DNA from: Fastidiosibacter lacustris
GTDB taxonomy: Bacteria > Pseudomonadota > Gammaproteobacteria > Francisellales > Francisellaceae
DNA length: 32,000 nucleotides
Assembly (NCBI RefSeq): GCF_003428155.1
Contig: NZ_QLIR01000005.1
Span: 30,001 to 62,000, forward strand
Direction of reading: 5' to 3'
The notes under the pieces were generated by a model. It worked only from the letters and a program-made list of their open reading frames with translations, had not been told where the DNA came from and made no database searches. Of the stretch, positions 13,090 through 26,911 are shown one piece after another (positions within the stretch are counted from its first letter, which is position 1; each line of letters opens with the position of its first letter). A program made the position numbers and the translations under genes.

Positions 13090-13572
13090 CTAGATACTCT
13101 TTTTAAATAATCGTTCTTTTTCACGTTTCCAATCATGCTCTCTTGATGCTTGGCGTTTGTCGTGCAGTTGTTTCCCCTTGGCAATCGCGATTTCCAGTTT
13201 AACGCGTGATCCTTGCCAATACATACAAAGAGGTACTACGGTATAGCCTTTTTGGTCTACCTTGCCTAGTAGCTTATTGATTTCTCGGCGATGTAGCAAA
13301 AGTTTGCGAGTACCACTTGGGGCAGGCACCACATGGGTTGAAGCTGAATTAAGGGGTGTAATCAGTGCATTAAAAAGCCAAGCTTCATTATTTTTAACAT
13401 GAATGTGGCTATCAATCAATTGCACGCGCCCTGCACGAATGCTTTTGACTTCCCAGCCTTGAAGAACGATACCTGCTTCAAAGCGTTCTTCGATGATATA
13501 ATCATGAAAAGCTTTTTTATTCTTGGCAATGACGTTGTCAGTTGCTGTTGATTTTGATTTTGTTTTTGCCAT
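13090..13572 (-). CDS. smpB: SsrA-binding protein
   Basis: [31 protein letters not shown] and full-length collinearity at 160 aa match SmpB. Confidence 0.95.
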
Positions 13573-14386: not shown

Positions 14387-14529
14387 AAAATAAGGTTGAT
14401 TTATTATGTATGTAACACAAAAGAAGAAATAAAATAAGAAAATTTAGTATTTACTCCTAAATTAACATAATGTCTTTAATTTTATAATTACTTCCTATAT
14501 AAAAAATACTTTCATGTAGGGAGATCGAT

Positions 14530-14931
14530 ATGTCAAGTAATAAAGATGATTTAAAATTTCTGTTGACTAAACGTCTAAATGATTATGATGCAATTGTTAT
14601 CGCAGAAGATGACAGCACTTACATGTATGGAATTGTTGATATAGTTCAACAAGTTAATGTGGAGTTGATGTTACCAATTTATATTGCTAAAACAACAAGC
14701 CAGCTAGCTATGTTAAAAAATCAATTAGATGGGTGTGGTTTAAGAGCTATTTACATTCTAGATAATAAATATACAATTGAGGCAGCTGAACCTACAGGGC
14801 AAGAACTCATTGCGCTGTGGCATATAGAAAGTGATAGTATTCTAATAACTTCAAGTTATAGGGAGATATTAAAGGGTAAACCAGCATACCCTGTTTTTGA
14901 TAAAATAAATCCAACTTTTGATTTTTGTTAG
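14530..14931 (+). CDS. Hypothetical protein with a possible degenerate receiver (CheY-like) fold
   Basis: AGGGAG lies 6 nt upstream of the ATG. The pattern AIVIAEDD ... IYILD ... ILITSS ... K resembles the beta1 acidic pair, the beta3 Asp and the beta4 Ser/Thr of REC domains, but the spacing after beta4 is short. The region is low in GC. Confidence 0.4.
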   Translation: MSSNKDDLKFLLTKRLNDYDAIVIAEDDSTYMYGIVDIVQQVNVELMLPIYIAKTTSQLAMLKNQLDGCGLRAIYILDNKYTIEAAEPTGQELIALWHIESDSILITSSYREILKGKPAYPVFDKINPTFDFC

Positions 14932-15794
14932 TTAAACTTGTGCTTTACTTTGTGTTTTGCTTTAGGGATATAGTTAAAAAAAAATCCCACAAGGTCTTGC
15001 CATCCATGTTCTCTTACAATTACGTTAGCGTCTTTTCTTGTGCTAATATTGTTTTTGCTTTTAATTTCTGAAATATGGTAATCAACAGATTTTATAGTAA
15101 CGTTCATCATTTCAGCCATTTGTTGGCGATTGCAACCGTTTGCATATAATAGAAGATAGACAAATTCTTTTGCTGTAAGGCTTAATTTATGTCGCTCAGC
15201 TTGCAGTTCTTTATGATATTTTCTTTCTAGCTTATATGTGGGTGTAATGTAATTAGGAAGTTCGATTTTATGGCTATATGCGTCTAGTATAATTTTCTCT
15301 GCCGCAGATTGAAAATATGATGCAAATTTTAATAATTCATCCTGATGGTATATATAAAAATGAGAAACTTGATCGAAATTTTTACTACTACATCCAAAAC
15401 AAAACTGGTCAAAATAGCCGTTTCCTCTTCTCACTAGGTCAAGTTTATTACCAATATCAAATAACTGTGTGGATAGAGTTTCTGACTGAGATATTTCCTT
15501 TTCTAATTTTCTTAGGTAATTAATTCCCAATTTCATGCGACCAGCAATTTTTTCATGCATACGGTTTTGATAAAAGTATAAAATCCATTCTTTTGAAGCA
15601 GATATCGGCGTGGTTTTGTCATCTGAGGTCGTTAAATCAATACAAAACCCATCGTCAAATATTCTGGCATAGGTAAAGTAGGATATTAGGGAACTCTTCC
15701 ATAAAGGTGCACATATTTCACTTAAGGGTTCATGATTAGGCATAGTAAAGTTACGAACTTCTGCTGGTACATTACTGGCTGAATTGGTAAGCAT
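14928..15794 (-). CDS. LuxR/GerE-family HTH transcriptional regulator with an unassigned N-terminal domain
   Basis: The C-terminal LTAKEFVYLLLYANGCNRQQMAEMMNVTIKSVDYHISEIKSK matches the LuxR-type HTH. The start was set at Met8, which is preceded by GGGAGA. The gene overlaps the 3' end of the upstream MFS gene by 23 nt, which suggests an operon. Confidence 0.7.
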   Translation of the reverse strand: MLTNSASNVPAEVRNFTMPNHEPLSEICAPLWKSSLISYFTYARIFDDGFCIDLTTSDDKTTPISASKEWILYFYQNRMHEKIAGRMKLGINYLRKLEKEISQSETLSTQLFDIGNKLDLVRRGNGYFDQFCFGCSSKNFDQVSHFYIYHQDELLKFASYFQSAAEKIILDAYSHKIELPNYITPTYKLERKYHKELQAERHKLSLTAKEFVYLLLYANGCNRQQMAEMMNVTIKSVDYHISEIKSKNNISTRKDANVIVREHGWQDLVGFFFNYIPKAKHKVKHKFN

Positions 15795-17046
15795 AATTGT
15801 TCTCCCAGTTTTCACTGTTAACTTGTGGAACAGAACGAATGATAAAAATTGCTATAACGCTCATAATCAATAAATACAGACTTGGAGCGTAGTATATATT
15901 AAGAGTTGATTGTAAATACGTATTAACCATAGGCGTTGTTCCTCCAAATATTGCAATTGCAATATTTAAACCTAGCCCAATTGTTGATGCTCGTAAGTGA
16001 TTACTACTTTGTTTTGCAACAAGTAAAGCATACTTTGGCAAATACATCGAAAGGAAAAAGCATATAGAGATCATTGAGATAATAATTCCACAAATTGATT
16101 GTGATTGAACAAATTTAAATGCTAAAAAACTTGTTAAACACATTCCCATCAAAGCTGTACCAACTTGATATAAAACATGTAAGTTTTTCGCAATCTTAAT
16201 CATCAACGGCAAGAACAATAGCAATATGATTAAAGAAATAGAAAGTAATGTTAACGATCCTAAAATTGAGAAACCCATTAAGTCTTGCAAAACATTTGGC
16301 AAGTAAAATGTCAATGTATAGAAACAGATGCTTAAGGGTGATTCTATTAGCATAATTCTTAAAACACTTTTCCATTGGTATTTAAGAGCACTAAATACTG
16401 GAAAATTTGTGACTTTATGATTAATTTTAGGTAGTGTTTCTAATGCTATACTACGTATGTAACCAAGATAGATAATTATTGCTACTGATATGGCAAAAGG
16501 TATTCTCCAACCCCAATTTTGAAACATTGATTGAGGCATTATCCACGTGAATAACAGAACGATTAAGCACGCAGTAACCGCTCCAGTGACTGTGCTAATT
16601 TCAGAATAGCTTGTGTATCTGATTTTTTGACCAGATGGTGCAATTTCGTATAATGCGGCTCTTGAAGTTGGCATTTCACCAGCGTATGCCAGCCCTTGAG
16701 TTACTCTGCATACTAATAAAATTAATGGGGCTATCATGCCAATACTATTGTAGGTTGGTAGTATTGCTATAATCGTTGCTGAAATTGCCATTAGTGAAAT
16801 TGTGATTATTAAAACAGGTTTTCGCCCTCTTTTGTCTGCTATATGCCCCCATAAGAACACTCCAAGTGGTCGAATGATATAGCCTACCGCAATTAAGGTA
16901 TATGCCATTAATAAGCTGATAAAATGATTATCATGTGGGAAAAATAGAGGGGCAAAAATAGGTGCCAAAATTCCATACAGCATAAAGTCATAAAATTCTA
17001 GCCCGTTTCCAAGAGCAATAACCAGTGCTTTTTTCTCTATCACCAA
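15772..17046 (-). CDS. MFS transporter, metabolite:H+ symporter (ProP/KgtP-like) family
   Basis: About 12 TM segments are predicted. GNGLEFYDFMLYG and GHIADKRGRKPVL are characteristic of MHS-family MFS proteins. The TTG start follows AGGATGA. Confidence 0.8.
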   Translation of the reverse strand: MVIEKKALVIALGNGLEFYDFMLYGILAPIFAPLFFPHDNHFISLLMAYTLIAVGYIIRPLGVFLWGHIADKRGRKPVLIITISLMAISATIIAILPTYNSIGMIAPLILLVCRVTQGLAYAGEMPTSRAALYEIAPSGQKIRYTSYSEISTVTGAVTACLIVLLFTWIMPQSMFQNWGWRIPFAISVAIIIYLGYIRSIALETLPKINHKVTNFPVFSALKYQWKSVLRIMLIESPLSICFYTLTFYLPNVLQDLMGFSILGSLTLLSISLIILLLFLPLMIKIAKNLHVLYQVGTALMGMCLTSFLAFKFVQSQSICGIIISMISICFFLSMYLPKYALLVAKQSSNHLRASTIGLGLNIAIAIFGGTTPMVNTYLQSTLNIYYAPSLYLLIMSVIAIFIIRSVPQVNSENWENNYAYQFSQ

Positions 17047-17380
17047 ACTTCATCCTTCACTATCACCTTGATAGCATAATTGTCACCCAGAACCATGAAA
17101 ATATGTATTTCATTTCTTGTATTGAAATATATTTAATTTGAAGCGAATGTAACAAGGAATCTAATAATTAAATTTTAATAAGGGAGTGCTGCTCACAAAT
17201 CTTTTTCCAAATATCTTCAACTATGTAATAATTCATCTTGCGATTCTTTTGTTGTTTTTGCAAACAATGTTTCAGCTTAAGGATTGTAAGCTTTCAAATC
17301 ATATTTTGATTAAAACAATTTAAGTTCAAATCATGTAGTGTTGTAGGTTTATAGAACATAGAGTCATTAAGGGATAGAGA

Positions 17381-19877: not shown

Positions 19878-22115
19878 ATGGATCAGTTAAGTCTATCTTT
19901 TGAGGATAATGAAAAGCAAACCATTAGCCAATTTACGCGTCAAGCTTATTTAAATTATTCCATGTATGTGATTTTAGATCGTGCACTACCACATATTGGT
20001 GATGGTCTAAAACCTGTGCAAAGAAGGATTATTTATGCAATGTCCGAAATTGGATTATCAGCATTAAGTAAGCATAAAAAATCCGCGCGTACCGTAGGGG
20101 ATGTGTTGGGTAAATATCATCCACATGGTGATAGTGCTTGTTATGAGGCAATGGTGCTTATGGCACAAGATTTTTCATATCGATATCCTCTTATTGATGG
20201 TCAAGGTAACTGGGGATCTCAAGATGATCCAAAATCGTTTGCAGCAATGCGTTATACTGAGTCACGGCTATCAAAGTATGCAGAAGTACTCTTAAGCGAA
20301 TTGAAACTTGGTACGGTTGATTGGACCACAAATTTTGATGGTACGCTTCAGGAGCCAAAGATATTGCCTGCACAAGTACCAAATGTATTGTTAAATGGGA
20401 GTATGGGCATTGCAGTTGGAATGTCAACGGATATCCCTTCACATAATTTAAATGAAGTAGTACAAGGATGTTTATATTTACTAGCGGATAAAAATCATGA
20501 TTTAGATGGATTGATGGATCATATTCCAGGACCAGATTATCCAGGTGGTGCTGAGATTGTTACCCCTTTTGAAGAGCGAAAAAGAATTTACGAAACAGGC
20601 ACAGGTAGCATTAAACTACGTGCGGTTTTTCATGTTGAGGATGGAAATATCATTATTACACGTTTGCCACACCAGGTGTCTAGTGCTAAGTTGATTGAAC
20701 AGATTGCATCTCACATGCACGGTAAGAAAATTCCGTGGTTAAGTGATATTCGAGATGAATCAGATTACAATGACCCTGTTAGAATTGTACTGGTTCCACG
20801 ATCCAATCGTATTGATACAAATCTGCTGATGAGTCATTTGTTTGCAACAACTGATTTAGAGAAAAGCTATCGTATTAATTTAAATATAATTGGTCTAAAT
20901 GGCAAACCTCAAGTTAAATCATTAATCCAAATTTTAACTGAGTGGTTAGAGTTTAGAACACAAGTAACAACTAAACGCTTAGAGTTTCAATTGGATAAAA
21001 TATTAGAGCGATTACACATCCTAGATGGTTTTTTGATTGCATTTTTAAATATTGATGAAATCATTGCCATTATTCGTTATAAAGATGATCCAAAAGATGA
21101 GCTTAAAAAACGCTTTGAACTTACAGATGCAAAAGCAGAAGCAATATTGAATTTACGCTTGTGTAATTTGGCTAAGCTTGAAGAAATTGCCCTTCAAAAG
21201 GAAAAACATGAATTAGAAATAGAGCGTGATGTGATAATGGGTTATTTAGATGATCCAGCTAAGCTTAAAACGCTTATTAAGAAGGAACTAGAACTTGTTC
21301 AGCAAAAGCATGGAGATGCACGTAAATCTGCTTTAATTGTACGCCCTGAAGCCAGAGCGCTCAAAGATTCTGATTTGCAACCTGTGGAAAGCGTAACTAT
21401 CGTTTTATCTAAGCAAGGTTGGGTGAGAGTTGCTAAAGGGCATGAAGTAAACGTTGAAGGTTTAAGTTATAAGGTGGGCGATAGCTACTTTGCTTCTAGT
21501 GTGGGTAAAACTAATCAACCTTGTTTATTTTTTTCAAGCCTAGGTAAAGTTTATAGTTTACTAAGTACAGATCTGCCTTCAGCAAGAGGGCAAGGTGAGC
21601 CAATTACTGGACATTTGAAATTAGAAAAAAATGAGACAATAATAGGTTTAAGTTTTGTGAGGACTGATGATCAAGTGCTTTTTGCCTCAAGTGCGGGCAA
21701 TGCTTTTTTAGCACAATCAGAAGGTCTTATCACCAAAAGCAAAGTCGGTAAACAGGTGATTACACTAGGTGATGATCGCATTGTACCTCCTGTTAATATT
21801 AAAGAAAATGAAGATGCCTTTGTTGTTGCTATTTCTAATCAAGGCAGGCTTTTGGCAGTAAAGAAATCAGAGATCCCAAACTTAACTAAAGGTAAAGGCA
21901 ATCGCTTAATTAATATGCCAAGTCATCTTGCAACAGGCGAAATGCTTAAGTTTGTTGCAGTTGTTCTTAAAGGTGAAACATTGACTATCTTCTCAGGTAA
22001 ACGCCATATGCGTTTAAGCTTTTCTGATTTAAAGGATTATGAAGGTAAGCGGGCAACAAGGGGTAAGCTCCTCCCTCGTGGGTTTCAGAATGTTGATCGG
22101 GTGATTGTGCTATAG
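19878..22115 (+). CDS. parC: DNA topoisomerase IV subunit A
   Basis: [33 protein letters not shown] is present, along with [13 protein letters not shown] (QRDR with wild-type-like Ser and Glu) and the active-site Tyr in AAMRYTE. Confidence 0.9.
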
Positions 22116-22116
22116 A

Positions 22117-22226
22117 TTAAAAAGTGGGTAATGTTGTCATCTAGCGCATTTGTTTTTATAATCAAAAATAGAAAAAATTGATATACGTTGCAGGAATTGC
22201 AACTCAATAAAAACAGTTAAAGCAGG
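22117..22226. repeat. Left arm of a long imperfect inverted repeat (pairs with 25701-25813)
   Basis: The reverse complement aligns by hand with 25701-25813. About 93 of 111 aligned positions match, with one 7-nt indel. The arm starts 2 nt after the parC stop. Confidence 0.8.
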
Positions 22227-22308
22227 TAAGAACCAATTGAAATCTAGTCCAAATGGTGCACAAAGATATCCCTGTCAAATTGAATATAAAGCACTAGGTC
22301 GGCTGCCT

Positions 22309-22819
22309 GAGAACCTGTTCAAAAATTTTTTTAATTTGCTAAAATCTACGTTTTTAAATTCCAAAAGTGGGGAGTTGAAATGCGAAAACGCTATCCCATT
22401 GATATTACACGCGCACAGTTTGCAGTAATTGAACCCATTCTTTTAAGTGCTAGAAAAAAGACAGCACCAAGAGAACTAGCTTTTGTATTGTGGATGCGCA
22501 AAGTGTGAAAAATACAGATACTGCTGAAAATAAAGGTTATGACGCAGGTAAAAGAGTTTCTGGAATTAAGCGATATATTGCTGTGGATACACAAGGCTTG
22601 CCGCATGCTATCCATATTACAACAAATTAGCTAAACGAAGTGAACTGCATAAGTTTGCTGTGATCCCAAAGAGTTGGGTGGTTGAACGCTCTTTTGCTTG
22701 ATTAGAAAAATAAAATGTCGGCGTTTATGGAAAAACTGTGAAAGAAAAAATAATACCAGTTTGCAAATGGTTGTACTTGCTTTCATTAGGCTAATAGCAC
22801 AGAGACTTTGAACAGGCTC
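22309..22819 (+). mobile_element. Internally deleted IS5-family (IS427/IS1031-like) insertion sequence remnant
   Basis: The terminal IRs are GAGAACCTGTTCAAA (left) and the reverse complement of TTTGAACAGGCTC (right). Flanking TGA/TAA may be a degenerate TNA target duplication. The element encloses transposase fragments. Confidence 0.8.
22380..22811 (+). pseudogene. IS5-family DDE transposase pseudogene (three fragments, two internal deletions, one stop, one frameshift)
   Basis: The fragments MRKRYPIDITRAQFAVIEPILLSARKKTAPR, VDAQSVKNTDTAENKGYDAGKRVSGIKRYIAVDTQGLPHAIHITT and AKRSELHKFAVIPKSWVVERSFA*LEK / KCRRLWKNCERKNNTSLQMVVLAFIRLIAQRL lie in different frames. Each matches conserved blocks of this transposase family as I remember them. 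Confidence 0.8.
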
Positions 22820-22921
22820 TAAGGTCTCATCTGCCTGACAAAATTAATGAGACGGTGTACTAGTTACACTAATCTCTGTGTGTTATTATTTTGCTTTAAT
22901 TTGAGTTTGGGAGTTTAATTA

Positions 22922-25666
22922 ATGGGATATATTAACTATAGAAAAATAGAGAAAAAATGGAATATTAAATGGAATGATGACAATGTATATAAAGTTCACC
23001 CCGACTCTACAAAGAAAAAATTTTATTGCATTGACATGTTCCCATATCCTTCTGGTAGCGGTCTTCATGTTGGACATCCTCTAGGATACATTGCTACTGA
23101 TATTACATGCCGCTATAAACGCTTGAAAGGATATAATGTTTTGCATGCTATGGGATTTGACTCATTTGGATTGCCAGCAGAACAATTTGCAATAGAGACA
23201 GGGCAAAACCCAAAAAAAACAACTGAAGAAAACATATGTAACTTTAATTCCCAAATAAGTAGAATGGGACTGTGCATTGATAAATCTAGAGAAATTAGAA
23301 CATCAGATAAAGAATACTATAAGTGGACTCAATGGATCTTTATTAAGTTATTTAATTCTTGGTACGATACAGAAAAAAATCAAGCTAGAGACATAAAAGA
23401 TTTAATTTTATGTTTTGAAAAAGGTGGTTCTTTTGGAATTAATGCAGCTAAGGACAATAATGCTGCTGATTTCTCAGCAAATGATTGGACAAATTTTTCT
23501 GAACTTGAAAAATCAGAAATCCTTATGCAATATAGACTGACTTATCTGTCTTATGCGACAGTGAATTGGTGTCCAAAACTAGGAACTGTACTTGCGAATG
23601 ATGAAGTTATTAATGGGGTATCTGAAAGAGGGGGGCACCCGGTAGAAAAACGGAAGATGAAACAATGGATGATGAGAATAACAGCATATGCAGATCGTTT
23701 GCTATCTAACTTAAATTCTCTGGATTGGCCAGAATCTTTAAAAGAAACACAGAAAAATTGGATAGGGAAATCTCAAGGTATTGTAATTAATTTCAATATT
23801 GACAACTCAAGTGAAACGATAGATATATATACTTCTAAACCTGAAACTATATTTGGCGTAACATTTTTATGCATTTCCCCAGAGCATCCATCTTTGCAAA
23901 GCTTTATAACAAATGAGAATAAGTTAAAAGTAAATGAGTATGTTGAAAAAACTTCCAAAGATAGCGAGCTAGAAAGAGTTTCTAATCTTAACCAAATAAG
24001 TGGAATCTTTACTGGTAAATATGCCATAAACCCTGCAAATAACCAGAAAATACCTATTTGGATTGGAAACTACGTTCTATCAAGTTATGGAACGGGAGTT
24101 GTAATGGGAGTTCCAAGTGAAGATGCAAGAGATAGCGAGTTAGCAAAAAAATATGACTTAAATTTTATTGATGTACTAGATAAAAACACAAATAAAATAA
24201 TAAATTCAAACTTCTTAAATGGAATGTCTACTTATCAAGCAAACGAATCAATATGCCAATATTTATGCAATTTAAAGATTGGAAAGAAAAAAACTAATTT
24301 CAAATTGCGTGACGCAATATTTGGTCGTCAAAGATACTGGGGTGAACCGATCCCAATTTATTATGAAGATGGCATCCCTAAAGCTATTAAAGAATCTGAA
24401 CTCCCTTTAGAACTTCCAGAGATAAATAACTACCTTCCAACAAAAGATGGAACACCACCTTTAGGTCGTGCTAAAGAGTGGTTGTATAAAGGTAAATTTA
24501 AATATGAACTAACTACAATGCCAAGCTGGGCAGCTTCAACTTGGTACTTCTTAAGATATATGTCACCTAATAATGAAAACCATCTTGTAAACAGCGAAGA
24601 CAGTTCTTACTGGGATCAAGTTGACTTATATATTGGTGGCAGTGAACATGCAACGGGACATCTTTTATATTCAAGATTTTGGAATCTTTTTTTATATGAT
24701 ATAGGAGTTATAAGCTTTGCTGAACCTTTTAAAAAAATTATTAATCAAGGGATGCTCCAAGGAAGATCATCCTTTATTTATCGTATAAAAGGAGAAAATA
24801 CTTTTGTTTCAAGTGAGTTAAAAAATAATTATGACGTTCAAAAACTTCATGTTGATATTAAATATATTAACTCAGATGACTCTCTCAATATTAAAGAATT
24901 TAAAACATGGAGAAATGAAAATAAAGACAGTAAGTTTATCTACGATGGTAAACATTTTTACTGCGATTGGACAATAGAAAAAATGTCTAAATCAAAATAC
25001 AATGTAGTCAATCCAGACGATATAATTCAACAATTTGGATCAGATGTCTTTAGAATTTACGAAATGTTTTTAGGTCCAATACAGCAGTCAAAACCTTGGA
25101 TGTTAAATGGTATTGAAGGTGTCAGCAAATTTATCAATAAGCTGTGGCGCTTGTTTTATAATGATAAAGGAGAGCTTATAGTTAGTCATAACGCAGCAAC
25201 ACATCATGAGTTGCATATCCTGCATACTATGTTGCAAAAAGTAGCTAGCGATATAGATCGCTTCTCCTATAACACAGCTATTAGCGCCATGATGATTTGT
25301 GTCAATGAACTAACTGCCATTAAATGCCATAGTACTCACATCCTGAAGGATTTACTTATCGCTGTTTCTCCTTTTGCTGTGTATATATCACAAGAACTTT
25401 GGCAACAAGCTCTTAAACAGAATGATTACATCGTTGACCAAAGTTATCCTGAAATCAAAGATCAATATCTAGACATTAAAGTTATTACATACCCAATTAC
25501 TATAAATGGAAAGTTAAAACTACACATGGATTTTGATTCACAAGATGATAATGAAACCATAAAACAAAAGACTATAAGTGAAGAAAAAATTAAAAGGTTA
25601 ATAAAAAATCAAGAAATCAAAAAATTTATACATGTTCCTGGGAAAATAATTAATATTGTTATTTGA
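22922..25666 (+). CDS. leuS: Leucyl-tRNA synthetase, long (914 aa) non-gammaproteobacterial type
   Basis: The ORF carries HIGH (LHVGHP), KMSKS (EKMSKSKYN) and a CP1 editing domain (TSKPETIFGVTF, GTGVVMGVPSEDARD). SERGGHPV replaces the Zn-binding Cys motif of E. coli LeuRS. GGGAG lies 8 nt upstream of the ATG. Confidence 0.9.
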   Translation: MGYINYRKIEKKWNIKWNDDNVYKVHPDSTKKKFYCIDMFPYPSGSGLHVGHPLGYIATDITCRYKRLKGYNVLHAMGFDSFGLPAEQFAIETGQNPKKTTEENICNFNSQISRMGLCIDKSREIRTSDKEYYKWTQWIFIKLFNSWYDTEKNQARDIKDLILCFEKGGSFGINAAKDNNAADFSANDWTNFSELEKSEILMQYRLTYLSYATVNWCPKLGTVLANDEVINGVSERGGHPVEKRKMKQWMMRITAYADRLLSNLNSLDWPESLKETQKNWIGKSQGIVINFNIDNSSETIDIYTSKPETIFGVTFLCISPEHPSLQSFITNENKLKVNEYVEKTSKDSELERVSNLNQISGIFTGKYAINPANNQKIPIWIGNYVLSSYGTGVVMGVPSEDARDSELAKKYDLNFIDVLDKNTNKIINSNFLNGMSTYQANESICQYLCNLKIGKKKTNFKLRDAIFGRQRYWGEPIPIYYEDGIPKAIKESELPLELPEINNYLPTKDGTPPLGRAKEWLYKGKFKYELTTMPSWAASTWYFLRYMSPNNENHLVNSEDSSYWDQVDLYIGGSEHATGHLLYSRFWNLFLYDIGVISFAEPFKKIINQGMLQGRSSFIYRIKGENTFVSSELKNNYDVQKLHVDIKYINSDDSLNIKEFKTWRNENKDSKFIYDGKHFYCDWTIEKMSKSKYNVVNPDDIIQQFGSDVFRIYEMFLGPIQQSKPWMLNGIEGVSKFINKLWRLFYNDKGELIVSHNAATHHELHILHTMLQKVASDIDRFSYNTAISAMMICVNELTAIKCHSTHILKDLLIAVSPFAVYISQELWQQALKQNDYIVDQSYPEIKDQYLDIKVITYPITINGKLKLHMDFDSQDDNETIKQKTISEEKIKRLIKNQEIKKFIHVPGKIINIVI

Positions 25667-25700
25667 TATAGATAGATTGGCAGTGTTTTACTTTAGCGTT

Positions 25701-25813
25701 CCTGCTTTAACTGTCTTTATTGAGTTGGAATTCCTGCAATCTACATCAATTTTCGTCATTTTTGATTTGAGATTATAAAAAGGGATGTGCTAGATGACAA
25801 CACTGCCTAATTA
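25701..25813. repeat. Right arm of the long imperfect inverted repeat (pairs with 22117-22226)
   Basis: See the left arm for the alignment. This arm ends at the base before the rluD stop codon (25814-25816). Confidence 0.8.
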
Positions 25814-26911
25814 TTAATATTCAAACCTTAGTTGATCTAAATCGTTGTCATCATCGTTATCATATTCCTCGTCGTCATAATCTTCATAGTCATCAACAAA
25901 GTCAAAATAGTCATCATTAAAGTCATCTTCATCATAACTGTACAATTGCTGAGCGTCGTAGCGGAGCGTTTTAATTAAATTTTGTAGATCTGTAGGTGGT
26001 TTGGCAATAAACTCAATATGCTTTTCAGTATCAGGGTGAATAAAGGCAAGTTTATAAGCATGTAGTGCTTGACGTTTGAAAGCTTTTAATACTTCTTGTG
26101 CTTCATCTGATAAGCCTTTAACCAGTTTTAAACGTGGGTTATAGATAGGATCACCTACAAGAGGTGCTTTAATATGCGCCATATGCACGCGAATTTGATG
26201 AGTTCTACCCGTTTCAAGTTTACATCTAATTCGCGTGTGCCCACGATAACGCTCAAGTACTACAAAATGAGTAATTGCCTCTTTACCAGTTGGTGTTACA
26301 GCCATTTTCAAACGGTTATGAGGGTTTCGACCTATTTTTGTTTTAATGGTACTACCAACGGTGATATATCCTGTTACAATTGCTTCATATTCACGCTTTA
26401 CTTGTCGCTTAGTTAATTGTTCAATTAACGAAGTATGAGCTTTAAGACTTTTAGCTATAACCATTATGCCTGAAGTATCTTTGTCCAATCGATGAATAAT
26501 ACCTGCCCTTGGTAGTGTTGAAAAAGCAGAATCGTGTGCAAGTAGCGCATTGGATAGAGTCCCAGAATAGTTTCCAGCTCCTGGATGGACAGTAAGACCA
26601 GCTGGTTTGTTAATAATGATGATATGATCATCTTCAAAAATAACATCAAGTGCTATTGGCTCGGCTTGCCAGTTGTTTTGTTGTTCTAATTGTGTATTAA
26701 GAGTAATTTCTTCACCGCCGATAATTTTATCTTTAGCTTTACGTTGTTCACCGTTTACGAGAATATCGCCTTGTTTTAACCATTTTTGTAATTGTGAACG
26801 TGAATAGTCTCTAAATAGGATGGATAAACATTGGTCAAGTCTTTTTCCAGCTAGTGTTTCTGGTGCAATAACATTTTGATGAATATTTTTAAATACGGTA
26901 TGATGTGACAC
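25814..26911 (-). CDS. rluD: 23S rRNA pseudouridine synthase RluD with a C-terminal extension of about 45 aa rich in D, E and Y
   Basis: The ORF has an S4 domain (LAGKRLDQCLS...LVNGE) and the catalytic motif HRLDKDTSG. It is divergent from bamD as in E. coli. The start was reassigned to the GTG at 26911, which has AGGA about 9 nt upstream. The longer track ORF would overlap the bamD start. Confidence 0.85.
   Translation of the reverse strand: MSHHTVFKNIHQNVIAPETLAGKRLDQCLSILFRDYSRSQLQKWLKQGDILVNGEQRKAKDKIIGGEEITLNTQLEQQNNWQAEPIALDVIFEDDHIIIINKPAGLTVHPGAGNYSGTLSNALLAHDSAFSTLPRAGIIHRLDKDTSGIMVIAKSLKAHTSLIEQLTKRQVKREYEAIVTGYITVGSTIKTKIGRNPHNRLKMAVTPTGKEAITHFVVLERYRGHTRIRCKLETGRTHQIRVHMAHIKAPLVGDPIYNPRLKLVKGLSDEAQEVLKAFKRQALHAYKLAFIHPDTEKHIEFIAKPPTDLQNLIKTLRYDAQQLYSYDEDDFNDDYFDFVDDYEDYDDEEYDNDDDNDLDQLRFEY

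Follow-up and report, generated by a model that had tools for sequence, protein, structure and literature searches.

Leucyl-tRNA synthetase (LeuRS) has been validated as a target of antibacterial and antifungal agents, among them agrocin 84 and benzoxaboroles such as tavaborole and epetraborole. In Rhizobium rhizogenes K84, the agrocin 84 cluster of plasmid pAgK84 encodes AgnB2, a second LeuRS that confers self-immunity (PMC5059758, PMC8323819). Resistant synthetase copies of other amino-acid specificities, which are mobile or encoded in the gene clusters of producers, are MupM, MupA and MupB (isoleucyl-tRNA synthetases; mupirocin), AbmK (a seryl-tRNA synthetase; albomycin) and ObaO (a threonyl-tRNA synthetase; obafluorin). 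We examined a leuS gene within a 32,000-nucleotide stretch of DNA (here termed the window) from Fastidiosibacter lacustris, a lake- and ciliate-associated gammaproteobacterium (Thiotrichales, Fastidiosibacteraceae). On balance, and with modest confidence in the chain as a whole, we favour the view that this gene encodes a horizontally acquired auxiliary LeuRS which serves as an orphan immunity or resistance gene.

The source of the DNA was established from exact protein matches. Window proteins were identical to WP_116963684.1 (the leuS product) and WP_116963683.1, among others, and the neighbouring ParC, DnaB and QueA were also exact F. lacustris proteins, which bore out the gammaproteobacterial backbone recognized in an earlier note on this DNA. 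The leuS product gave a full-length match of 874 bits to the NCBIfam model TIGR00396 (leuS_bact; cut-off, 548.4) and weak matches of 41 and 36 bits to the MupA and MupB models (cut-off, 1900). The class I HIGH and KMSKS motifs were present (HVGH at residues 49-52 and KMSKS at 687-691), as were the CP1 editing domain with its Thr-rich motif (TSKPET at 304-309), GTG..DARD at 390-404 (DARD at 401-404) and the conserved Asp corresponding to E. coli D345. Alignment with E. coli LeuRS located a 58-aa insertion after ...KLFNSWY (residues 148-205, nt 23363-23536), the sequence GVSERGGHP at the place of the zinc-binding cysteines of E. coli GCCWRCD, and a Leu-specific region before KMSKS that was ∼27 aa longer. 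The earlier note had pointed to all three, giving the first insertion as about 55 aa, and had associated both insertions with Bacteroidota. All three features were common to Bacteroidota housekeeping LeuRS and hence are subfamily markers that are not particular to the window gene. Identity to Bacteroidota LeuRS was 51 to 55%, with the closest being those of Cytophagales (Flammeovirga and relatives; 53 to 55%), versus 34.8% to E. coli LeuRS. Judged by these alignments, "Bacteroidota-type" is correct as a subfamily label for the window protein.

The best non-self matches to the window LeuRS were from other Proteobacteria and not from Bacteroidota (Table 1). A neighbour-joining tree with 200 bootstraps was constructed from these accessory sequences (n = 10) and Bacteroidota housekeeping LeuRS (n = 20), with E. 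coli as the single outgroup. The ten sequences were monophyletic with 95.5% bootstrap support, had longer branches and were separate from the sampled Bacteroidota. This accessory clade consisted of the window protein, those of Photorhabdus viridis, Xenorhabdus sp. TH1, Pantoea agglomerans, Providencia spp., Wohlfahrtiimonas and Burkholderia lata, and three metagenomic sequences, and full-length open reading frames (ORFs) were kept throughout, across distant hosts. As there was one distant outgroup, the tree cannot tell a sister relationship to Bacteroidota from a nested position among them. A search of the PLSDB plasmids detected no close relative of the window gene, the best matches being Bacteroidales records at 48%. 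In E. coli the gene order is leuS-lptE-holA, and a Providencia alcalifaciens record has a leuS with merely 31% identity to the window. Since Enterobacterales and Burkholderia should possess a proteobacterial leuS of their own, the accessory-clade genes in these taxa are most likely extra copies.

Housekeeping LeuRS of Flammeovirga, Sphingobacterium and Pontibacter share the architecture of the window protein, whereas the latter belongs to a separate, faster-evolving LeuRS clade found in Proteobacteria, with fixed changes at otherwise invariant positions. A D251E substitution (E. coli numbering throughout) was found in 10/10 accessory LeuRS at a site that was invariant in the 20 Bacteroidota proteins and E. 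coli. Further changes at such invariant positions were T248S, R249K, A262S, P76A and loss of W121, with A262S, P76A and a replaced W121 occurring in most accessory proteins. The Thr-rich editing motif of the accessory proteins was T(S/T)(K/R)PET versus TTRxDT. These substitutions would be compatible with an altered handling of an inhibitor or substrate analogue but are no proof of it.

Codon usage of the window gene differed from that of 21 core genes. AGA accounted for 16/27 Arg codons (59%) in leuS and 50/291 (17%) in the core genes (Fisher p = 5e-6), while ATA accounted for 34/88 (39%) and 94/569 (17%) Ile codons, respectively (p = 8e-6). The GC content of leuS was 31.9% compared to a mean of 36.1% for 26 other window ORFs (z = -1.6), and GC at third codon positions was undistinctive (24.4% versus 27.0%; z = -0.95); the published GC content of the F. 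lacustris genome is 36.3% (PMC9837558). Thus, of the foreign composition claimed in the earlier note, the AGA and ATA enrichment stood (p ∼1e-5) while the GC shift had been overstated. The accessory leuS genes of Photorhabdus, Wohlfahrtiimonas and Xenorhabdus had GC contents of just 30 to 36%, which fits the mild AT shift of the window gene. Operon DNA surrounding the gene in Photorhabdus and Wohlfahrtiimonas was similarly AT-rich (28 to 31% GC), and the chromosomal DNA flanking that of Xenorhabdus had 44% GC. A second foreign-looking patch was observed at window positions 14400-17100, where GC was the lowest in the window (0.31 to 0.33) and fractions of AGA (0.33 to 0.62) and ATA (0.32 to 0.36) were similar to those of leuS; this patch encodes a 133-aa ORF without assignment, a 295-aa LuxR/GerE-type regulator and a 424-aa metabolite/H+ symporter of the major facilitator superfamily (MFS).

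Because of the phylogeny, the codon usage and a context bounded by insertion sequences (IS; described below), the window gene is very likely to have been laterally acquired, as the earlier note had argued. The donor proposed there, an AT-rich Bacteroidota with an intracellular life in a shared host such as an amoeba, was not supported, since the closest relatives form a proteobacterial clade apart from Bacteroidota. The proximate source is more likely to have been a gene pool, mobile among Proteobacteria, of Bacteroidota-like LeuRS linked to an uncharacterized operon.

This operon was found in 5/10 clade members, with LeuRS as the terminal gene (Table 1), and a metagenome scan yielded a single further close context, a Pantoea-type operon (L054) with 99 to 100% identity to that of P. 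agglomerans. The core of the operon consisted of two paralogous dCTP-deaminase-like (DCD) proteins, an alanyl-tRNA synthetase (AlaRS)-like protein, an ATP-grasp enzyme, an S-adenosylmethionine-dependent methyltransferase and a ∼250-aa DUF1826-like protein. The AlaRS-like protein, of ∼375 aa, matched AlaRS over the N-terminal catalytic part (TIGR00344, E = 6e-14; PDB AlaRS, E = 2e-6), and the ATP-grasp enzyme was similar to the L-amino-acid ligases BacD and DdaF. Some versions also had a diaminopimelate-decarboxylase-like pyridoxal phosphate (PLP) enzyme, an aldehyde dehydrogenase, MFS or AbgT transporters and an efflux pump. A search with the AlaRS-like protein of P. viridis detected just 17 homologues, none of them from F. 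lacustris. The DCD-B family is large, with more than 1700 matches; among the matches listed, all of at least 58% identity, was one from Facilibium subflavum, a member of the same family (Fastidiosibacteraceae) as F. lacustris.

The same operon was present in Pseudomonas batumici and in assembly GCA_001269725.1, with LeuRS at the start and of another lineage (34% identity to the window protein and 36 to 38% to E. coli). The AlaRS-like protein of the latter assembly clustered at ≥90% identity with one from Pseudomonas sp. SWRI154. An "alternative LeuRS" of P. batumici has been discussed in connection with batumin in the passage of PMC9951906 that cites Klochko 2016; this gene directly adjoins the DCD/AlaRS-like/ATP-grasp operon. 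An IS-rich island of Vibrio campbellii contained a cassette with a methyltransferase, two DCD genes, an APH-like kinase, a PLP decarboxylase, an MFS transporter and an ATP-grasp gene, in which AlaRS-like and LeuRS genes were absent and the kinase was present instead. The recruitment of two unrelated LeuRS types by one operon family and the co-occurrence of LeuRS with the AlaRS-like gene would both be explained most simply if LeuRS were the target of the operon product and the linked copy an immunity gene. No description of a LeuRS-linked cluster of the DCD/AlaRS-like/ATP-grasp kind was found in the literature searched, and this cluster is also absent from a 2021 review of natural aminoacyl-tRNA synthetase inhibitors.

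Three clade members, those of Xenorhabdus, a JGI metagenome contig and the window, were not visibly linked to the operon. The first two are found in resistance or mobile contexts. In Xenorhabdus sp. TH1, leuS was inserted after gcvTHP in a low-GC islet and was followed by a DHA2 (LfrA/QepA-like) drug-efflux MFS gene, while a sister contig had an IS1 (InsA plus DDE_Tnp_IS1) directly 3' of leuS. The JGI gene had as neighbours a small acetyltransferase of the GNAT family, transposases of the IS3 family and an integrase of phage type. Aminoacyl-nucleotides are detoxified by those GNATs that are of the MccE/RimL kind. For the window gene, operon homologues were detected neither within the window nor within the 3.7 kb by which contig L001 extends past its right end, and hence this copy is at best an orphan.

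The dispensability of the window gene was examined by comparison with "Ca. Nebulobacter yamunensis," an obligate Euplotes endosymbiont that is effectively the same species as F. lacustris (PMC9837558). The Nebulobacter assembly is the other public one with this locus (GCA_024208055.1, JAMBMW; contig L001) and had 99.7% DNA identity to the window over 18.7 kb. A 1-nt deletion in a homopolymeric tract of A residues split the Nebulobacter leuS (L001 9660-12403) into ORFs of 111 and 800 aa, and a P307S substitution was present in the conserved editing motif TSKPET. Six other indel events between the assemblies were all non-coding or in-frame; one of these was a 6-nt in-frame indel in the N-terminal region of smpB at window position 13557. 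Both substitutions in leuS were non-synonymous, but neighbouring genes had a similar pattern (7 non-synonymous versus 4 synonymous) and hence no conclusion was drawn from these changes.

The Nebulobacter leuS has been catalogued as a pseudogene (PMC9837558, Tables S2b and S2d). In Table S2d, single-copy genes split in Nebulobacter are paired with unsuffixed F. lacustris clcA, glpF, radA and recN, while the Nebulobacter leuS_1/leuS_2 fragments are paired with an F. lacustris gene named leuS_1. As Prokka suffixes only names that occur more than once, F. lacustris should have another leuS, and this name implies at least two leuS coding sequences. No second leuS was seen in the ∼36 kb available. 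The frameshift and the suffix indirectly favour a dispensable gene over a replaced housekeeping gene, and it is quite probable that the window leuS is auxiliary, that is, present in addition to a housekeeping LeuRS.

The leuS gene lies among core genes, with parC upstream and rluD, followed by bamD, rdgC and dnaB, downstream (Table 1). Gaps of 806 bp after parC and 147 bp before rluD both contain ∼115-nt inverted repeats with 85% identity to each other, and the first gap also contains an IS5-family remnant; the flanking repeats and IS remnant reported in the earlier note were thus both confirmed. The remnant matched the Pfam families DDE_Tnp_1 (E = 3e-8) and DDE_Tnp_1_2 (E = 5e-5) and retained its own 18-nt terminal inverted repeats (22306-22323 and 22807-22824). 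The termini of the flanking repeats (left, GGTAATGTTGTCATC; right, GGCAGTGTTGTCATC) aligned with the terminal repeat of E. coli IS1A, GGTGATGCTGCCAAC, and an InsA-like zinc-ribbon ORF started ∼57 nt into each repeat (right, MTKIDVDCRNSNSIKTVKAG; left, ...CRNCNSIKTVKAGKNQLKSSPNGAQRYPC). In the left repeat this decayed start was preceded by an inward promoter-like site, and the insA-like frame ran to ∼22305. Similarity of the InsA-like peptide was weak, with sub-threshold matches to Pfam PF03811 (E = 0.0066 to 0.064) and 12/37 identities to E. coli InsA in BLASTP (E = 4e-4). The TTGTCA-17-TATAAT sites are consensus matches, and the total number of such sites in the region was not above shuffle expectation.

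The right repeat broke off 35 nt away from the stop codon of leuS and abutted the rluD stop codon (25814-25816), which falls within the last few bases of this repeat. The mirror copy of the promoter in this repeat could drive antisense transcription into the leuS 3' end. RluD was observed to carry a ∼40-aa, unusually acidic tail (25817-25940, minus strand; ...DEDDFNDDYFDFVDDYEDYDDEEYDNDDDNDLDQLRFEY) beyond the region covered by the RluD model.

No transposase ORF survives between parC and rluD, and no target-site duplication was detected, the 9-nt flanks TAAAAAGTG and TAATTATTA agreeing at 5/9 positions. Tn9 and Tn1681 are IS1-flanked composite transposons. Like them, the window locus has a passenger bracketed by two ends, putatively of the IS1 family and here inverted with the outside ends intact, but only ∼115 to 190 nt of each IS is left and there is no transposase or recognizable target duplication. 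Due to this and the weak IS1 similarity, we regard it as only probable that the parC-rluD interval is a decayed composite transposon consisting of an IS1-like end, an IS5 remnant, leuS and an inverted IS1-like end. The flanking repeats and the IS5 remnant had no match in the other loci examined, and the repeats were unique in the sequence examined. An Rfam scan of 21900-26000 and a tRNA scan of the window gave no matches and so indicated neither an attachment site nor a leader RNA. In Cysteiniphilum and Caedibacter, the closest relatives in a ParC scan of genome contigs that did not return F. lacustris itself (ParC identities of 82 to 84%), parC was found without mnmC upstream and without rluD downstream and, as these neighbourhoods differ, an empty insertion site could not be shown.

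Table 1. Features of the F. lacustris leuS locus, contexts of related genes on other contigs and identities of accessory-clade LeuRS to the window protein (positions are those of the window unless a contig is named)
Feature	Position	Strand	Description
leuS	22922..25666	+	intact 914-aa Bacteroidota-like LeuRS of the accessory clade; ATG start
Shine-Dalgarno GGGAG	22909..22913	+	8 nt 5' of leuS ATG; read from sequence
A8 homopolymer in leuS	23212..23219	+	codons ∼97-100; A7 in Nebulobacter
Left inverted repeat	22116..22233	+	IS1-family-like left (5') end; terminus GGTAATGTTGTCATC from 22127
Sigma-70-like promoter TTGTCA-17-TATAAT	22134..22162	+	11/12 consensus matches; inside left repeat, towards leuS
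Degenerate IS5-family element	22306..22824	+	transposase with stop codons and frameshifts; interrupts IS1-like insA frame
Right inverted repeat	25697..25820	-	second IS1-like left-end fragment, inverted; reads MTKIDVDCRNSNSIKTVKAG
Promoter mirror copy	25800-25772	-	in right repeat; antisense into leuS 3' end
parC	19878-22115	+	core gene
rluD	25814-26911	-	core gene
Operon, Burkholderia lata	L009 1678-13635		accessory LeuRS at end
Operon, Wohlfahrtiimonas	L007 3919-12718		accessory LeuRS at end
Operon, Providencia	L133 196-9015		accessory LeuRS at end
Operon, Pantoea agglomerans	L006 1942-13557		accessory LeuRS at end
Operon, Photorhabdus viridis	L005 401-8089		partial contig; accessory LeuRS at end
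Operon, Pseudomonas batumici	L014 1-11119		LeuRS of other lineage at start
Operon, GCA_001269725.1	L015 1-11164		LeuRS of other lineage at start
Cassette, Vibrio campbellii	L052 8678-15037		in IS-rich island
Xenorhabdus sp. TH1 leuS context	L002 9700-15700		after gcvTHP
IS1, Xenorhabdus sister contig	L003 12901-13557		directly 3' of leuS
JGI leuS context	L004 1261-12322		metagenome contig
Photorhabdus viridis LeuRS			63% identity to window
Pantoea agglomerans cluster (P0003) LeuRS			61% identity to window
Xenorhabdus sp. TH1 LeuRS			60% identity to window
JGI and Logan contigs (P0005, P0006) LeuRS			58-59% identity to window
Wohlfahrtiimonas chitiniclastica LeuRS			56% identity to window
Providencia huaxiensis/rettgeri cluster (P0022) LeuRS			53% identity to window
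Burkholderia lata LeuRS			51% identity to window

The state of the locus bears on whether leuS could be a neutral passenger, a functional and redundant transposon-borne LeuRS which confers no benefit and is heading for decay. Such a fate would agree with the degeneracy of all of the flanking IS elements, with the lack of the operon nearby and with the broken Nebulobacter gene, in which the conserved editing proline is also replaced. However, the 2.7-kb ORF is intact in F. lacustris even though the surrounding IS copies are ∼85% identical and riddled with stop codons, which suggests that selection has maintained it, and the whole accessory clade has kept full-length ORFs; a passenger is therefore regarded as unlikely.

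The earlier note had set out two functional scenarios, of which xenologous replacement was disfavoured and now appears improbable. Under this scenario the Bacteroidota-like gene would be the sole functional LeuRS, the ancestral gammaproteobacterial leuS having been displaced. Frameshifting of the gene in an almost identical obligate endosymbiont, which must charge tRNA-Leu, is hard to reconcile with such a role, as are the F. lacustris Prokka name, the AGA and ATA usage, which is unlike that of core genes, and the accessory contexts of the closest relatives, whose taxa should possess a proteobacterial leuS of their own. These observations were set against an intact ORF that retains every catalytic and editing motif and follows a good Shine-Dalgarno sequence, a position among parC, rluD, bamD and dnaB and the failure to find a second leuS in the DNA available. 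The other scenario, that of an auxiliary immunity LeuRS, was favoured because half of the clade members are operon-linked, an unrelated LeuRS was recruited by the operon in Pseudomonas, the gene is broken in Nebulobacter and the F. lacustris gene bears the leuS_1 suffix. A biosynthetic LeuRS, which would supply Leu-AMP or Leu-tRNA for the operon product with the Fastidiosibacter copy serving a cluster elsewhere in the genome, is very improbable, for although LeuRS is co-operonic with AlaRS-like and amino-acid-ligating ATP-grasp enzymes, F. lacustris has many ddaF- and rizA-like ATP-grasp ligase genes (PMC9837558) and AbmK joins substrate supply and immunity for albomycin (PMC8323819), these substrates could come from a housekeeping LeuRS, the recruitment of two unrelated LeuRS types by the same operon fits target immunity better than specialized catalysis, the AlaRS-like search returned no F. 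lacustris protein and isolated copies beside efflux pumps or IS elements make little sense.

Under the favoured explanation of an auxiliary immunity gene, a Bacteroidota-like LeuRS lineage would circulate among Proteobacteria as the LeuRS gene of a biosynthetic-type operon. On the model of AgnB2, MupM and AbmK, the operon-linked enzyme would duplicate the target in a toxin-insensitive form and would keep tRNA-Leu charged during a block of the housekeeping LeuRS. The gene would have come to Fastidiosibacter without the operon, on the now-decayed composite transposon in the parC-rluD gap, and, as an orphan, would there confer immunity or resistance to a compound of other bacteria that is directed at LeuRS. 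It would be dispensable without inhibitor pressure, as the frameshift in the intracellular sister strain suggests. In this chain, we infer the native leuS and its type, the insensitivity to the inhibitor and the nature of that inhibitor.

Several points weigh against this explanation. The operon-linked LeuRS could instead be biosynthetic. The operon may also be present elsewhere in the F. lacustris genome, as the DCD matches listed went down only to 58% identity and the genome has many ATP-grasp ligase genes. A native F. lacustris leuS rests on the Prokka naming and the Nebulobacter frameshift, and the latter could be a homopolymer assembly error or be rescued by slippage. The tree is a neighbour-joining tree with a single distant outgroup, such that long branches could account for the placement of the clade as sister to Bacteroidota. 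The clade substitutions are conservative, and of the resistance determinants of AgnB2 the window LeuRS shows neither KQSKS nor a lost Leu-specific domain. Finally, the IS1-like identity of the flanking repeats is a sub-threshold similarity without a target-site duplication.

That one LeuRS lineage recurs in a single conserved and so far unstudied operon points to a natural inhibitor of LeuRS that is new, and capture of a second, unrelated LeuRS type by the same operon strengthens this case. We tentatively suggest, at somewhat less than even confidence, that the accessory clade is a marker for an undescribed family of natural products that target LeuRS and whose immunity gene is already spreading alone on IS elements. 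If so, the product could be an aminoacyl-nucleotide or a leucine-antimetabolite dipeptide, the makers would be Pantoea, Providencia, Photorhabdus, Wohlfahrtiimonas, Burkholderia and Pseudomonas by means of the DCD/AlaRS-like/ATP-grasp operon, and the Fastidiosibacter, Xenorhabdus and JGI copies would, as free-standing determinants, confer resistance at a drug target that is essential. The accessory LeuRS would then be a ready resistance marker for finding the inhibitor. The Fastidiosibacter copy would represent a putative immunity gene that moves without its operon on insertion sequences, a route from producer self-resistance to environmental resistance. The picture of the locus is also corrected: leuS is seen neither as a gene passed straight from Bacteroidota to a symbiont nor as a housekeeping gene that was replaced, but as an accessory gene under loss in an intracellular sister strain.

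Duplication of an insensitive aminoacyl-tRNA synthetase is a known kind of system, while the accessory lineage, its operon and the free-standing IS-borne copies appear to be undescribed. Target duplication and the horizontal spread of divergent synthetases, sometimes free of a cluster (e.g., mupA), are shared with MupM, MupA, MupB, AbmK and ObaO, but these synthetases are of other amino-acid specificity, and they act against named inhibitors where the window LeuRS is a putative resistance enzyme. The operon-linked members resemble AgnB2 in that the latter is a LeuRS encoded with a LeuRS-inhibitor cluster, acts as an insensitive bypass and is mobile with the cluster (PMC5059758, PMC8323819). 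AgnB2 resembles alphaproteobacterial LeuRS (K84 chain 5ah5, 822 aa), with the Agrobacterium plasmid LeuRS having ∼36% identity to the window protein, and it has a KQSKS motif and a miniloop replacing the Leu-specific domain (PMC5059758). Assignment of the window protein to the AgnB2 type was rejected, as it keeps KMSKS and has the longer Leu-specific domain described above. The accessory-clade operon, with its two DCD genes, AlaRS-like gene and ATP-grasp gene, has no described gene in common with agn, and the window copy has no adjoining cluster. By analogy, the window gene may work like AgnB2 while not being of the AgnB2 lineage.

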